A model generated the notes under the pieces. It searched no databases. It saw only the letters and a list, made by a program, of their open reading frames with translations, and had not been told where the DNA came from. A stretch of DNA of 54,093 nucleotides from an uncultured Candidatus Saccharibacteria bacterium (GTDB lineage: Bacteria; Patescibacteriota; Dojkabacteria; SC72), in the NCBI GenBank assembly GCA_964480345.1, contig CAYZNW010000005.1:9980-64072 (forward strand), in the 5' to 3' direction. Positions 3,521 to 46,944 of this stretch are shown piece after piece (the first letter of the stretch is position 1; each line of letters opens with the position of its first letter). The position numbers were made by a program, and so were the translations under genes.

Positions 3521-4747
3521 ATGGACGAAAACAATTGTAACGAACAGAAACATCGAAGATTAGTAGGTACTGCAATACTCCTTGTAGCAGTATTTGTTCT
3601 TGGAATATTAACAGGACAGAGAGTTACTGGTAGTGACATAACTACTGTGTTTAACAAAAACAGTGATGTAAATATGGATATGTTCTGGCAGGTTTGGAAT
3701 ATAGCTTCAAAACAGTATGTAGATTCAGATAAAGTAGACAAAGAGAAGATGGTAACTGGAGCTATTAAAGGTATGGTTAACTCTTTTGAAGATCCTGCAA
3801 CAGTTTTTCTCGATCCAGAAGAAACAAAGAAATTCAATGAATCTACAAGTGGTAAATTCTTCCAAGGTATTGGAGCCGAACTTGGATACTCTGATGGAAG
3901 TGTCATAGTTGTTTCTCCAATTGAAGGCTCTCCAGCTAAAGAAGCAGGTATCCGTTCAGGCGACTATATCTTAAAGATAGATGATTACGAACTAACTCCA
4001 AAAGATTCAATATATGATGCAGTTGCTAAAATTCGAGGTGATGCTGGAACAAAAGTTACCTTAACAGTTCTGCATCGTGGAGATGAGAAGCCTGTAAGTA
4101 TTGAAATTGAAAGAAAAGAGATTACTGTTTCTAGTATGACCCTTGAATTTATTGGAAACAACAAAGATATAGCTAATTTGAAGGTGAATAGGTTTACTGA
4201 AACAACTGTAGCTGAATGGGAAAGAGAGTGGGATTCTAAAGTTAGTCAAATTGTGAAATCAGGAGTAAAGAAGATGATTCTTGATCTGAGAGGGAATCCT
4301 GGAGGGTATTTTGATGCCGCTATATACTCAGCAGACGAGTTCTTAGATGAAGGAAAAATCATATCACAACAACGAGATGGTTCAGGCCGTGTTATGAAGT
4401 ATGAATCCAAAAAAGGTGGTGAGTTGCTAGATATTGAAGTAGTAGTATTAGTTAATGAAGGAAGTGCTTCAGCTTCTGAAATTTTAGCAGGAGCTTTACA
4501 ACAAAATGGAAGAGCAAAAGTAATAGGTATGGCTACATACGGTAAAGGTACTGCACAATCTGTCTTAGATCTCTCAAACGGTTCTTCATTGCATTTAACA
4601 ATATTAAAGTGGTTACTTCCAGATGGTAGAAACTTAGATCATGAGAATAGTATCAAACCTGATGTAGAGGTTGATTTAACAAATGATGACTTTAAAGCTG
4701 GCAAAGATCCTCAGCTTCAAAAAGCATTAGAAATACTTTCTATTTAA
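3521..4747 (+). CDS. ctpA: S41 family C-terminal processing protease (PDZ + peptidase)
   Basis: N-terminal TM; GIGAELG PDZ loop; ILDLRGNPGG; SASASEILAGALQ; TYGKGTAQ. Confidence 0.95.
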   Translation: MDENNCNEQKHRRLVGTAILLVAVFVLGILTGQRVTGSDITTVFNKNSDVNMDMFWQVWNIASKQYVDSDKVDKEKMVTGAIKGMVNSFEDPATVFLDPEETKKFNESTSGKFFQGIGAELGYSDGSVIVVSPIEGSPAKEAGIRSGDYILKIDDYELTPKDSIYDAVAKIRGDAGTKVTLTVLHRGDEKPVSIEIERKEITVSSMTLEFIGNNKDIANLKVNRFTETTVAEWEREWDSKVSQIVKSGVKKMILDLRGNPGGYFDAAIYSADEFLDEGKIISQQRDGSGRVMKYESKKGGELLDIEVVVLVNEGSASASEILAGALQQNGRAKVIGMATYGKGTAQSVLDLSNGSSLHLTILKWLLPDGRNLDHENSIKPDVEVDLTNDDFKAGKDPQLQKALEILSI

Positions 4748-42515: not shown

Positions 42516-44171
42516 CTATTTCCTACTCAACTCTTTATGCATATATAGTTTGCCTTTGTAGAACATATTTGATTCGTAATACTTTCTTGTTCCAATAGCA
42601 GATATTACAGAAATCCTCTCTATGCCTTGCTTCTTACTAATTCTCTCTGCCTCCTTTATTAACATTCTCCCAAGACCTAAATGTTGTGACTCTCCCCTAC
42701 TTTGCTGTTTTAGTCCAACTACAGTCCCATATACATGTATCTCTCTGATTATGCTAGAACTATTTAATTCATTTATGAAATTACAGTTAATTAAATCTCT
42801 CTTTGGAATAGATAATCTAAGAAAAGCACATAACATATCATCTTTCTTTGTTCTGTATGATATGAAATACTCAGTACTAACACTCGTTTTGTATTTAATA
42901 CTTTCAAGTTCTAAATCTCTCCTATCCACCTCTCTATTTTTAATTTCTCTTGCGTGAATCTCATTAATCTTCACTCCTTTATGCTTCAGATTACCCTCAA
43001 CTATCTGTCTCAGATTAGTAATCTTACTTCCTGCCTCTATCTCTTCAGAAGGAATATCTCTTATGATTCTAGAAAGCCTGCAATATCTAGGAGTCATAGC
43101 TATACTCTTTTCTAAAACTTCTATTAGCTCCTCTTTACTATACGGTACATATTGATTCTCTTTGTATAGATGATACAGTCTTGTATTTGAAATGACAGAA
43201 GTTGGATAGATCTTAAGTTCATCTGGAGCAAACTCCTCTGACCACAATTTCTTGTATCCATCAATATCAATCTTTGGAGTAGACATATACAGTGCTGGCA
43301 TCCAGTGTCCATGAATCTTAAACCCTGCTCTTCTTAACAGAGCAAATGCCTTCTTGACATCATCTACACTCCTGCCTACACAGTTTGCATCAAGTATCTT
43401 GTCAGAGAGAGTTTGTATCCCTATTTGAACCTTTGTAGCTCCAAATCTTCTCATAGTGATTACTTCATCTTCAGTAATACAGTCAGGTCTTGTTTCTAAA
43501 ACTAAACCTACATTCCTACTGTATGCTCCCTCGTTCTTCCTCTGATTCTTTTCTAGTTCACTCCATTTTACATCTTTAAATGAGTCATCTTTAGGTATTA
43601 CATATTCATTACTATTCATATCAATATCATTCATTGCTCTAAAACATTCATTTATGAACCAAATTCTGTAATCTAAAGAATATGCCGACCAAGTTCCTCC
43701 AAGAATAATTAACTCGACCTTCTCCACATTATGCCCAATCTTTTTTAAAGCTACTACCCTATTAAATACCTGGGCATACGGATCAAACTTACTTACTAAA
43801 GCCCTCTGAGCACCAGGTTCAGAAGCTATGTAACTTTTCGGCATACTTGAATCATTTGGACAGAAGATACATCTACCAGGACATGGATACGGCTTAGTTA
43901 ATACAGTAACTACAGCAACTCCTGAATTAGTTCTTGTAGGTTTTAAACGAATTCTGTTTTCTAAAAGCTTACTTCTCTCAATTAGCTTTTTAGAAAGAAG
44001 AAAGTTATACATCTCCACAAGCTCGTCATTACGATATATCATCCCATTACTACTTTTGAATTTTCTTAACAGCTTGTTCAATGAATCTGTATTCCAATCT
44101 TTCGAATTAATGAAAAGAATTTCATCAAATATCTTCTTAAATTTTTTAGTTTTTTCAGTATTAAATTTCAT
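42516..44171 (-). CDS. elp3: Elp3-family radical SAM / acetyltransferase tRNA U34-modifying enzyme
   Basis: RTNSGVAVVTV, CPGRCIFCP, PKSYIASEPG, ETRPD, ELKIYPT, IREIHVYG, QHLGLGRML, ISAIGTRKYY. Confidence 0.93.
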   Translation of the reverse strand: MKFNTEKTKKFKKIFDEILFINSKDWNTDSLNKLLRKFKSSNGMIYRNDELVEMYNFLLSKKLIERSKLLENRIRLKPTRTNSGVAVVTVLTKPYPCPGRCIFCPNDSSMPKSYIASEPGAQRALVSKFDPYAQVFNRVVALKKIGHNVEKVELIILGGTWSAYSLDYRIWFINECFRAMNDIDMNSNEYVIPKDDSFKDVKWSELEKNQRKNEGAYSRNVGLVLETRPDCITEDEVITMRRFGATKVQIGIQTLSDKILDANCVGRSVDDVKKAFALLRRAGFKIHGHWMPALYMSTPKIDIDGYKKLWSEEFAPDELKIYPTSVISNTRLYHLYKENQYVPYSKEELIEVLEKSIAMTPRYCRLSRIIRDIPSEEIEAGSKITNLRQIVEGNLKHKGVKINEIHAREIKNREVDRRDLELESIKYKTSVSTEYFISYRTKKDDMLCAFLRLSIPKRDLINCNFINELNSSSIIREIHVYGTVVGLKQQSRGESQHLGLGRMLIKEAERISKKQGIERISVISAIGTRKYYESNMFYKGKLYMHKELSRK

Positions 44172-44221: not shown

Positions 44222-44830
44222 ATGCGAAGGCCAAGCATTGCTTTAGAGAGAAGTTTAATTTTAATTAAACCAGATGTATTACAGAGACAGATTGTTGGGG
44301 AAATACTAACAAGATTTGAAAGAAAAGGGTTTAAGATAGTTGGACTAAAGATGTTAAATGCGACGAAAGAACAAGTAGGAGAACATTACACAGCAGATGA
44401 GGCATACTTAATTGAAACAGGAGAGAAAGCAAAAAAAGGAGCTATAGCGAGAGGAGAGGATGTTTCAAATTGGAATTCATTAGAAAGAGGGAGAGTCATT
44501 AGACAACGAAATATTGATTATCTAACCTGCGGCCCTATTGTAGCTATGATACTGGAAGGACATGGAGTTGTATCTCAGGTGAGAAAAGTATTAGGTAGTA
44601 CTAGTCCAGCAGATGGAGATGTTGGAACCATTCGAGATGATTACTCTTTGGACACATACGCTTTAGCTGACTATATCTCTAGATCCACAAGAACAATGTT
44701 ACATGCCTCCGACTCAGTAGAAAATGCAGAAAGAGAGATAAAGATTTGGTTTACTAAGAAAGAGATATGTAACGATTACGAGACTGGTGTAGAAAAGATA
44801 TTCTACGATGAAGGGTGGGATCGAAAGTAG
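44222..44830 (+). CDS. ndk: Nucleoside diphosphate kinase, long variant
   Basis: SLILIKPD..QRQIVGEI..RFERKG, GTIRDDY, LHASDS (phospho-His), AEREIKIWF. Confidence 0.93.
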   Translation: MRRPSIALERSLILIKPDVLQRQIVGEILTRFERKGFKIVGLKMLNATKEQVGEHYTADEAYLIETGEKAKKGAIARGEDVSNWNSLERGRVIRQRNIDYLTCGPIVAMILEGHGVVSQVRKVLGSTSPADGDVGTIRDDYSLDTYALADYISRSTRTMLHASDSVENAEREIKIWFTKKEICNDYETGVEKIFYDEGWDRK

Positions 44831-44832
44831 GA

Positions 44833-45447
44833 TTACAGATTTAAAATATCATTAATCTCCCCTATTTTCCCAGATGAATTATTTTTTGTTGTATCTAAAA
44901 ACTCTTTAAGCTTTTTGAAATCCTCTAGTAGCACAGCTCTCAAATTAGGATTGTAAAGTGCAGCAGCCGGATGGTACATAGAGAAGATGGGAATATGGGA
45001 TGGATGATCAAATACCTCTCCATGTGAAGTAGTAATATTTGTATTTGGAACAAATCTAGTGAGAGCATGCCTACCTAAAGTTACTATGACTCTTGGTTTA
45101 ATGAAAAGAAGTTCAGCATTAAGCCAAACTCTACAAGCATCCTTCTCTGAATCTTGAGGCTCCCTATTATCTGGAGGCCTGTATTTCACAATATTACTAA
45201 CATACACATCCTCTCTCGTATGACCAATACTTTGCAAAAGTTCATTAAGAAATTTACCAGCAGCTCCTACAAAAGGTCTACCCTGAAGATCCTCATTTCT
45301 TCCTGGAGCTTCCCCTATGAATATTATCCCTGAAGATGGAGGATTAATCTCATACACAGGTTGAGTAGCCACATCTTTCAACTTACAACTATTATGAACT
45401 GCATAGTACTCATGCAATTCTTTTATGGAATCAAACTCCCTTCTCAT
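44833..45447 (-). CDS. udg: Family-4 uracil-DNA glycosylase
   Basis: IGEAPGRNED..GRPFVGAAG, NIVKYRPP, MYHPAAALY. Confidence 0.93.
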   Translation of the reverse strand: MRREFDSIKELHEYYAVHNSCKLKDVATQPVYEINPPSSGIIFIGEAPGRNEDLQGRPFVGAAGKFLNELLQSIGHTREDVYVSNIVKYRPPDNREPQDSEKDACRVWLNAELLFIKPRVIVTLGRHALTRFVPNTNITTSHGEVFDHPSHIPIFSMYHPAAALYNPNLRAVLLEDFKKLKEFLDTTKNNSSGKIGEINDILNL

Positions 45448-45503: not shown

Positions 45504-45731
45504 ATGAAGATTACTGTTAAAGTAAAAATAAATCAGAAAGAGGAAAAAGTAGAATACATTGAAGCAGAAAATATATATATCTTACACACAAAAGAACCTG
45601 CTAAAGAGAATAAAGCTAATATGAAAGTTATTGAAATCCTGTCAGAAAAATTTCATATTCCCAAAAGAAATATTACAATAACTTATGGATTAAAAAACAG
45701 AAACAAAATTGTGAATATAGATGAGAATTAA
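45504..45731 (+). CDS. DUF167 (YggU) family protein
   Basis: ITVKVK, EPAKENKAN..VIEILS..F, GLKNRNKIV. Confidence 0.85.
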   Translation: MKITVKVKINQKEEKVEYIEAENIYILHTKEPAKENKANMKVIEILSEKFHIPKRNITITYGLKNRNKIVNIDEN

Positions 45732-45734
45732 AAG

Positions 45735-46184
45735 CTAAACCTCCCCCTGTATACTCCAGAAAGTAACCTGCCCGATATTCATATTTGGATATATCTTAAC
45801 TGGCAAAACAGGATTCAACATCAAAGTACACTGCTTAATAGAGCCTAAATCAATCAAATCTGCTGTAATATTCACAAAAATCCCAAGCCTCCCTATCGAT
45901 GACCGTCCCTTAATAATTGGCACATACAAATTACTCCCTATGACCTCCTGAGTCTTACCGATATATATCTGATTAGGATCTAACAACAAGCCCTCCTCTG
46001 TAATAGTAATCTCCTCTGTCTCATTCTCCCCCTTAGAATCTAAAATATCTCCTTTGTAAATCTGCAATGTAGAATCAATATGAAAATCATATGAATTTGC
46101 TTGTATACTCTTCTCATCAAAAGGAGATATTACAATTGTTCCTTCATTCACACATTTTGAAATTTCTTTACCTGTTAAAATCAT
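45735..46184 (-). CDS. dCTP deaminase/dUTPase-fold protein B (motif-2 Ser/Arg intact; catalytic Glu and C-terminal tail missing)
   Basis: MILTGKEI, ANSYD, GRSSIGRLG, ITADLIDLG, TLML, IGQVTFW. Confidence 0.88.
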   Translation of the reverse strand: MILTGKEISKCVNEGTIVISPFDEKSIQANSYDFHIDSTLQIYKGDILDSKGENETEEITITEEGLLLDPNQIYIGKTQEVIGSNLYVPIIKGRSSIGRLGIFVNITADLIDLGSIKQCTLMLNPVLPVKIYPNMNIGQVTFWSIQGEV

Positions 46185-46705
46185 TTTTCTAATTGTTTAA
46201 ATAATTTACTTAAGTATGGAGTATTCTGAGTCGCATAAAATTCTGTATTGTCATAATTAATCTCCCCTTTAGGTAGCCAAAAAGTCACTTTCCCAATCTC
46301 CATAAATGGATATACTCGCAATTTCTTTACAACCTGAATCTCTAAAGTCCATTTATGTGCTTTCCCTAGCTGACCTAAATCTGCAGTAATTTGCAAAAAC
46401 ATACCAAGCTTACCTATACGATTCCTTCCTGCTAGTGAAGTTACAAAGTGTTGACTACCAATAACTTCACTTGTGGTACCGAGATACAGTTTATTTGGTT
46501 CTAGTACAAAACCCTCCTCTGGGATAGTTATCTCCTTTGTTGAAGGCTCTCTATTAATATCACCAACATCGTCTATCTCTATGAGAGTATTTGAAAGATG
46601 GTAAATATAGCTAGTTGGAGCTATACACCTTTCCTCAAAAGGAGAAATAACAACCCTTCCTGACTCTACCTCTTTTTTTATTTCCTTACCTGTTAGTATG
46701 CTTAT
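46181..46705 (-). CDS. dCTP deaminase/dUTPase-fold protein A, 174 aa, putative ATA start (the ORF track shows only the last 73 aa)
   Basis: Hand-translated frame is open from ATA 46705: (M)SILTGKEIKKEVESGRVVISPFEE...LEPNKLYLGTTSEVIGS...GRNRIGKLGMFLQITADLGQLG...WTLEI. GGAG lies 7 nt upstream. No ATG, GTG or TTG between the upstream in-frame TAG and this point. Confidence 0.8.
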   Translation of the reverse strand: MSILTGKEIKKEVESGRVVISPFEERCIAPTSYIYHLSNTLIEIDDVGDINREPSTKEITIPEEGFVLEPNKLYLGTTSEVIGSQHFVTSLAGRNRIGKLGMFLQITADLGQLGKAHKWTLEIQVVKKLRVYPFMEIGKVTFWLPKGEINYDNTEFYATQNTPYLSKLFKQLEK

Positions 46706-46944
46706 AAACTGTCTCCAACGTAATAAGTTATGTTTATATAACAGAAACTATAGCAGATATTTCAGAATATTTTAAGAAGCTATAAGCTAATTTAGCGTTA
46801 CTTATGTTTAAATCTTCTATCGTTGTTCATAACTGCAGTTAATAAATGAACTAGCTATAATAATAAAAATTGTTAGCTTAAGGTAATCACATTGATAATA
46901 TCCCATACTGTCTTAAATCATTATTAAATATCCTCTTAAATGCT

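Follow-up and report, generated by a model that had tools for sequence, protein, structure and literature searches.

Two adjacent genes of the dCTP deaminase (DCD) fold, here called g1 and g2, lie on the minus strand of a 54,093-nucleotide stretch of contig CAYZNW010000005.1 from an uncultured Candidatus Saccharibacteria bacterium, the whole of which is referred to as the window, and are considered here as candidate subunits of one heteromeric enzyme. The upstream gene, g1 (46181..46705, minus strand), comprises 174 codons and ends in a TGA stop; the downstream gene, g2 (45735..46184, minus strand), runs from an ATG start to a TAG stop and encodes 149 amino acids. They are separate open reading frames in different frames with a 4-nt overlap, ATGA (46181..46184, minus strand), in which the stop codon of g1 and the start codon of g2 share bases, an arrangement that by its sequence fits translational coupling. 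Both products match PF22769 (3e-25 for g1 and 8e-35 for g2). The two paralogs overlapping at ATGA, which had been noticed in the original prediction, are confirmed from the reading frames. The proteins could be aligned end to end with solved chains of dCTP deaminase (Dcd) and of the bifunctional dCTP deaminase-dUTPases (DCD-DUTs). Foldseek matched their AlphaFold models (predicted local distance difference test, pLDDT, 86.8 for g1 and 88.7 for g2) best, at TM-scores of 0.8-0.86, to PDB entries for E. coli Dcd and for the DCD-DUTs of B. halodurans, M. tuberculosis and M. jannaschii. With the dCTP deaminase model TIGR02274, which stands for EC 3.5.4.13, g1 scored 50.8 bits and g2 85.0 bits, both below the cutoff of 92.8; the Streptomyces homologs scored 62 and 86.8 bits.

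The catalytic motifs of the two proteins, all on the minus strand, are altered in different places. In g1, motif II reads GRNRIGK (residues 93-99, 46409..46429) and is degenerate by alignment and column entropy in comparison with GRSSxGR. Motif III of g1, QITADLGQLGKAHKWTLE (residues 105-122, 46340..46393), is nearly invariant throughout the g1 family; it carries Gln112 (46370-46372) in alignment with Asp128 of E. coli Dcd and Glu122 (46340-46342, in WTLEI) in alignment with Glu138. A C-terminal tail of 31 residues follows (residues 144-174, 46184..46276), the presumed lid over the g1 motif III site. In E. coli numbering, g1 thus has Asn for Ser111, Arg for Ser112, Lys for Arg115 and Gln for Asp128 and keeps Glu138. 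In g2, motif II is the canonical GRSSIGR (residues 93-99, 45888..45908). Motif III, NITADLIDLGSIKQCTLM (residues 105-122, 45819..45872), keeps Asp128 as Asp112 (45849-45851) and has Met122 (45819-45821, in CTLML) at the position of Glu138. The C-terminus of g2, FWSIQGEV, comes directly after motif IV and no tail is present. This description of motifs and tails had been given before by eye, and it proved accurate in the alignment to the Dcd and DCD-DUT structures.

Neither protein has, in one chain, the Ser111, Arg115 and Glu138 required of a Dcd, and neither combines Asp and Glu in motif III as the DCD-DUTs (EC 3.5.4.30) do, g1 having Gln/Glu and g2 Asp/Met. What the window pair does display is the pattern of a composite site, with motif III on one module, motif II on the other, and the reciprocal motifs degenerate.

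The 5′ end of g1 is unusual. It contains no ATG, GTG or TTG, the first canonical start codon being Met102, and an in-frame stop is found 15 codons upstream of 46705. Judging from the sequence between that stop and Met102, the ATA at 46703..46705 (minus strand), a near-cognate codon, is probably the sole plausible start; 7 nt upstream of it stands a Shine-Dalgarno-like GGAG (46713..46716, minus strand). The start is at the same position in the nearest relatives, where L001 reads ATA AGT ATT (3998-4012) and L170 reads ATT AGC ATA (1977-1994), the corresponding segment of the window being 46697-46716. Because L001 and L170 share the ATA/ATT start, it is conserved and not a sequencing error. The near-cognate start also explains why g1 is missed or truncated by gene callers, as in L170, where it was cut to 138 amino acids. 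The ATA probably lowers the output of g1 relative to g2 and may tune the ratio of the two proteins. Most Dojkabacteria g1 genes (L002-L014, for example L003 3976-3997) instead carry a TATATAAT box ending about 6-8 nt before an ATG, from which the window subclade, with its GGAG leader and non-ATG start, differs; the position of the box suggests leaderless or near-leaderless g1 transcripts in L002-L014.

When the window is compared with L001, the ratio of nonsynonymous to synonymous substitution rates (dN/dS) comes to 0.047 in g1 and 0.037 in g2, so that purifying selection acts strongly on both. These values bear on the reading that the pair is merely a recent tandem duplicate which degenerates at random and has already lost the start codon of g1. 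The absence of ATG, GTG and TTG and the truncated gene calls are what such decay would produce. Nevertheless, the g1 frame has stayed open for 174 codons at a dN/dS of 0.047, three genomes share the near-cognate start, and the distribution of the pair, described next, is that of an old gene family.

By its homologs, the window belongs to Candidatus Dojkabacteria (WS6). A scan with a g1 profile, in which each species was represented by one genome, gave 150 confirmed loci, so that at least 150 genomes contain a g1 relative, and 80 of these loci were examined. They belong to Dojkabacteria, Saccharibacteria, WWE3 and other lineages of the candidate phyla radiation (CPR), Streptomyces, Clostridia, Paenibacillus, Chlamydiae, Holosporaceae, Verrucomicrobia, Muribaculaceae, a cyanobacterium and a member of Chloroflexi. 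In all 80 the DCD genes stand in tandem and in the same orientation, g2 after g1, with three genes in two cases, and the 4-nt overlap between g1 and g2 recurs in 53. In total, the ordered pair was seen in 103 loci from at least ten phyla, with motif II scored in 102 g1 and 103 g2 proteins. Throughout this set g1 has Gln, His or Asn at position 128 together with Glu138, and g2 has Asp128 together with Gln, Met, Thr or His at position 138, of which Gln, Met and Thr occur in the 80 examined genome loci. As it recurs in 103 independent gene pairs, the complementary split lies far beyond chance. A metagenome scan with a g2 profile found 23 g2-type genes, 21 of them beside a separate g1 and one in a g1-g2 fusion, the last being on a contig too short to judge; the 57 canonical Asp/Glu genes of the same scan were all single. 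Four further g2 proteins were looked up individually, each with a DCD gene directly upstream (4/4). The survey for which the original prediction had called finds both the pair and its residue split conserved across the 103 loci.

Three tandem DCD paralogs were observed in L024 (3998-5640, Promineifilaceae) and L073 (3998-5646, Oscillatoriales), where the extra gene has GRSTxAR, Asp128 and Val138. In L099 (1904-3537), a canonical Asp/Glu gene is followed by g1 and then by g2. The products of these three loci may form three-component heterotrimers.

The ancestry of the pair was followed in a neighbour-joining tree with bootstraps of 263 sequences, including 99 g1 and 105 g2. The g1 proteins were monophyletic with a bootstrap of 79/100, and g1 and g2 together were split from canonical Dcd with 63/100. 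The pairwise divergences of g1 between genomes correlate with those of g2 (r=0.85). Monophyly and correlated divergences are explained by one old duplication followed by co-inheritance. With the same split in 103 pairs over many phyla and each paralog monophyletic, and with the dN/dS values and the conserved near-cognate start, pseudogene decay was rejected, to the extent that sequence data can do so; we regard it as hardly credible.

The motifs have not decayed evenly. Motif II of g1 is degenerate in 21/102 pairs from several lineages, namely the Dojkabacteria type, L060, L079, L095 and L129, with forms such as GRNRIAK, GRARTGK, GMDKTSK, GTLTTGN and GKTELGK; that of g2 is degenerate in none of 103. 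In 17 pairs g2 has no tail, and in all 17 of them motif II of g1 is degenerate. Full-length g2 relatives keep the canonical tail GKYQGxxGP. No g1 among the 103 pairs lacks Glu138, and none lacks the tail when those cut by a contig end are excluded. Both proteins are full length with intact motif II in 81/102 pairs. In the Dojkabacteria-type clade, the column entropy of g1 motif II is 0.69 bits, equal to the mean of the g1 protein, and falls to 0.23 bits in g1 motif III and 0.08 bits in g2 motif II. The loss of motif II from g1, while its motif III and tail stay constrained, argues that g1 does not act as a homotrimer. Read from these alignments, the Asp/Glu split is ancient and widespread, and the decay of motif II and the loss of the tail are later events of the Dojkabacteria-type branch.

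Multi-domain DCD proteins, collected by an exhaustive profile search, provide natural covalent counterparts. P0394 (L082 1935-3002, 355 amino acids; 8 contigs from 3 sources) joins g1 and g2 in a single chain. In P0252 (L161 5001-6044, 347 amino acids, 6 contigs), the first domain has GRSSTGR, a dead motif III and no tail; the second has a dead motif II, a g1-like motif III, LGHTGFNGHWVLE, with His/Glu, and a tail. In P0350 (466 amino acids), the first two domains have no tail and a dead motif III, and the third, which is g1-like, has a dead motif II. P0240, P0241 and P0390 (~540 amino acids; L163 1189-2838) have three domains, with motif III (Asp and Glu) and the tail on domain 1 only and GRSSVGR on domain 3 only. 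The tail is always on the domain with the surviving motif III in the fused relatives, and the gene contexts of P0252 and P0240 are ordinary bacterial ones. Since the intact motifs sit on different domains, a site in P0252, P0350 and the P0240-type chains can form only between unlike domains. By their motif composition, P0240/P0241/P0390, P0350, P0252 and P0394 appear as covalent pseudo-heteromers in bacterial single chains, and the window pair as the unfused equivalent of P0252. No report of such bacterial multi-domain DCD pseudo-heteromers was found in the literature searched.

Taken together, the recurrent pairing, the decay of motif II in g1 only and the fusions favour a reading in which g1 and g2 are the subunits of one obligate heterotrimeric DCD-fold enzyme with one composite deaminase site. 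We consider this reading probable. The physical association of the pair, its stoichiometry, its substrate and its products are what we infer from the residues, the fold, the co-occurrence, the decay, the fusions and the selection described above.

In textbooks, the enzymes of the dUTPase/Dcd superfamily are homotrimers. In the proposed enzyme, as in these, the nucleotide site would lie between two subunits, one of which would give motif III, with the base and sugar pocket and the positions of Asp128 and Glu138, and the neighbouring one motifs I, II and IV, with the phosphate-binding residues Ser111, Ser112 and Arg115. Tails that are not swapped act with motif III of their own chain, according to a review of dUTPases (PMC12524310). 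The sole site with a full deaminase set in the window would then be built from g2 motif II (GRSSIGR), the catalytic Glu of g1 motif III and the g1 lid, and this composite site (Ser, Ser, Arg, Glu) would deaminate dCTP to dUTP. Replacement of the Asp128 equivalent by Asn in the human and mycobacterial dUTPases abolishes hydrolysis and leaves binding intact (PMC4827122, PMC5519681). Because Gln stands in g1 for this residue, the general base in dUTPases, the g1-based site is predicted to be a pure deaminase without hydrolysis. The ATGA overlap would co-regulate the two genes. The ATA start may keep g1 below g2, and a trimer with g2 and g1 in a 2:1 ratio, a speculative arrangement, would fit; its g2-g2 interface would explain the invariant Asp128 of g2, again speculatively.

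The original prediction had likewise proposed a heterotrimer with one asymmetric site, which the above evidence favours, but it had each subunit supplying the residue of the Asp128/Glu138 couple that the other lacks. That part does not hold, because both residues belong to motif III, ten residues apart in one subunit, so that complementation between g1 and g2 at these positions is impossible. The real complementation, as far as it can be read from the motifs, is that of g2 motif II with g1 motif III and tail. Nor does g2 seem simply defective, since its Ser-Ser-Arg, Asp128 and Met138 are the pattern of two archaeal dUTPases, P45 and the T. pacificus enzyme; the statement that each protein is inactive alone goes further for g2 than its residues support.

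P45 of P. furiosus is reported to hydrolyse dUTP efficiently and not to deaminate dCTP (PMC5122711). Among the structures of P45 (9ln0, 9ln3) and the T. pacificus enzyme (8y1w), 9ln0 and 8y1w read RSSLAREG..VDPGWDGNLTLML, and g2 reads GRSSIGR..IDLGSIKQCTLML; shared are RSS..R, Asp128 and Met at the position of Glu138 (TLML). Nevertheless, P45 has a YRGNYQGS tail where window g2 has none, and g2 is always accompanied by g1. The archaeal dUTPase model NF002598 gave no match to window g2 and scored 23.5 bits against a cutoff of 130 for the full-length g2 half of P0394, and the structure of g2 is closer to the bacterial DCD-DUTs than to P45. Membership of g2 in the equivalog NF002598 was rejected, since g2 agrees with it in residue pattern and disagrees in both family model and tail.

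The resemblance to archaeal dUTPases suggests another arrangement, in which g1 and g2 form separate homotrimers for the consecutive steps from dCTP to dUTP and dUMP, g1 being a monofunctional dCTP deaminase and g2 a P45-like dUTPase, with the genes adjacent through their shared pathway. The residue pattern of g2, equal to that of 9ln0 and 8y1w, would be accounted for, the arrangement is chemically complete in the 81/102 pairs that are full length with intact motif II, and enzymes of adjacent steps are often co-transcribed or fused. In the window clade, however, both homotrimers would be crippled, that of g1 in motif II and that of g2 in its tail, yet both genes show strong purifying selection; motif II has decayed repeatedly in g1 and never in g2, the sites of P0252, P0350 and P0240 form only between unlike domains, and g2 came with g1 wherever the context could be read, though archaeal Dcd-like dUTPases work alone. 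Separate homotrimers are possible for the full-length pairs but do not fit the window clade or the fusions; as a general account of the pair we think them unlikely.

Several observations weigh against a single heterotrimer with one composite site. The monophyly of g2 has a modest bootstrap of 49/100. In the tail-less clade the entropy of g2 motif III is 0.34 and Asp128 is invariant, which a strict single-site model does not explain without additional use of a g2-g2 interface. Motif II of g1 in this clade is not random either, as GRNxIxK retains Arg110 and a basic residue at 115, and by its sequence would be compatible with a g1 homotrimer with altered phosphate binding. P0394, with two full-length halves, could work as two tethered homotrimers. 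The placement of motifs II and III on different chains is carried over from dUTPases (PMC12524310) to the DCD branch by homology and from the fusion patterns. Finally, dCTP is a presumed substrate, and both proteins fall below the TIGR02274 cutoff.

With Dcd and the DCD-DUTs, the pair shares the fold, the layout of motifs II, III and IV and also the catalytic Glu, which is in g1, and Ser-Ser-Arg, which is in g2. The known enzymes differ in being homotrimers of one gene product that has Ser111, Arg115, Asp128 and Glu138 in one chain, a set that is here divided between co-inherited paralogs. The closest precedents for the heterotrimer come from another branch of the superfamily. In the monomeric dUTPases of herpesviruses and the pseudo-heterotrimeric dUTPase of Drosophila virilis, modules have been duplicated, one keeping motif III and another motifs I, II and IV, and a single composite site survives (PMC12524310). 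The evolutionary logic, a composite site with decay of the other motifs, is the same. These are single polypeptides of the dUTPase branch, whereas the window has two coupled genes of the DCD branch. In the literature searched by full text, no description of tandem, paralogous or heteromeric dCTP deaminases was found.

The full-length pairs allow the heterotrimer reading to be carried further. The g2 motif III, with Asp and Met, would be of the dUTP-hydrolysing type known from P45, and probably gives full-length relatives a second type of site, which converts dUTP to dUMP. In the Dojkabacteria-type lineage, this g2-based site would be weakened or vestigial, because both the lid and the partner motif II of g1 have been lost. 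A widespread, unannotated class of obligate heterotrimers could have divided the ancestral bifunctional dCTP deaminase-dUTPase chemistries between subunit interfaces, with g1 motif III sites acting only as deaminases and g2 motif III sites only as dUTPases. We offer this generalization tentatively, with slightly more doubt than belief. If true, the enzyme is an asymmetric two-step machine, perhaps with dUTP handed over between sites, which Dojkabacteria and several fused forms have stripped to one composite site.

If g1 and g2 indeed form one enzyme, they provide a clean case of the passage from a homomer to an obligate heteromer after duplication, since intermediate stages survive in full-length pairs, in pairs with one decayed site and in fusions of two and three domains. 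Annotation is affected as well: where the genes are named in sources, both carry the label "dCTP deaminase" or "deoxycytidine deaminase", and the shared name hides the incomplete catalytic set of each protein alone. In the reduced genomes of CPR bacteria, the pair belongs to the pathway that turns cytosine deoxynucleotides into thymine deoxynucleotides, and whether its product is dUTP or dUMP affects the reconstruction of DNA-precursor metabolism.

Near the pair, the window contains a radical S-adenosylmethionine (SAM) protein of 551 amino acids with a Radical_SAM_C domain (42516-44171, minus strand), a nucleoside diphosphate kinase (NDK) of 202 amino acids that was matched in two stretches, seemingly with an insertion (44222-44830, plus strand), a family-4-like uracil-DNA glycosylase (UDG; 44833-45447, minus strand) and a DUF167/YggU protein (45504-45731, plus strand). 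L170 has the radical SAM protein, NDK, UDG and DCD pair as a syntenic block. At more than 20 further loci, a gene resembling deoxynucleoside monophosphate (dNMP) kinases precedes the pair. The context of the pair fits deoxynucleotide metabolism.

The context also bears on the possibility that the heteromer has another job, acting on CTP, on dCMP/dCDP or on a 5-modified dCTP, or that g2 serves chiefly for regulation or as a scaffold, as a pseudoenzyme subunit binding dTTP or dUTP. Neither protein reaches the curated cutoff for dCTP deaminases, and g1 has the family-specific invariant residues His117 and Trp119 (AHKWTLE) beside the base pocket. Neighbours at other loci include methyltransferases, a glycosyltransferase of type GT4, TauD, NUDIX/NrtR, histidine phosphatase and amidohydrolase, and g2 of L129 is fused to a methyltransferase. 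These neighbours vary, however, and none is universal; the commonest elsewhere is the dNMP-kinase-like gene, the window has ordinary genes of DNA-precursor metabolism and repair (NDK and UDG), each of the closest structures is a dCTP deaminase or a DCD-DUT, and neither a match to a defence-system model nor a viral copy was found. An altered specificity for a modified nucleotide had also been suggested in the original prediction; nothing in the sequence, structure or context comparisons made here points to it. We judge a different function of the heteromer to be quite improbable.

A role in anti-phage nucleotide depletion was considered as well and is unsupported: PADLOC gave no match for the four proteins submitted, no g1 relatives were found in viral contigs, and the neighbours in the window are housekeeping genes. 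The window has a G+C content of 32.8%, and ARAGORN found no tRNA genes in its 54 kb (1-54093).

The dNMP-kinase-like upstream gene encodes a P-loop protein of ~185 amino acids (L082 1393-1938, L077 2079-2636 and 20 more loci) and occurs in Chlamydiae, Clostridia, Verrucomicrobia and Muribaculaceae. Pfam gave no match to it; the L082 copy matches the phage dNMP kinase family phrog_139 at 2e-18. Often found with it are a histidine phosphatase and a NUDIX regulator of the NrtR type. In L129 (1386-4164), a g1 with fully degenerate motif II (GTLTTGN) is followed by a 391-amino-acid protein with two thymidylate-kinase-like P-loop domains and then by a g2 with a class I methyltransferase domain fused to its C-terminus. 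In L164 (87-1977), L168 (1-2020) and L038 (2114-3196), from Saccharibacteria and other CPR bacteria, the pair comes after a class I methyltransferase and a 361-amino-acid protein, the latter with weak similarity to the catalytic core of alanyl-tRNA synthetase.

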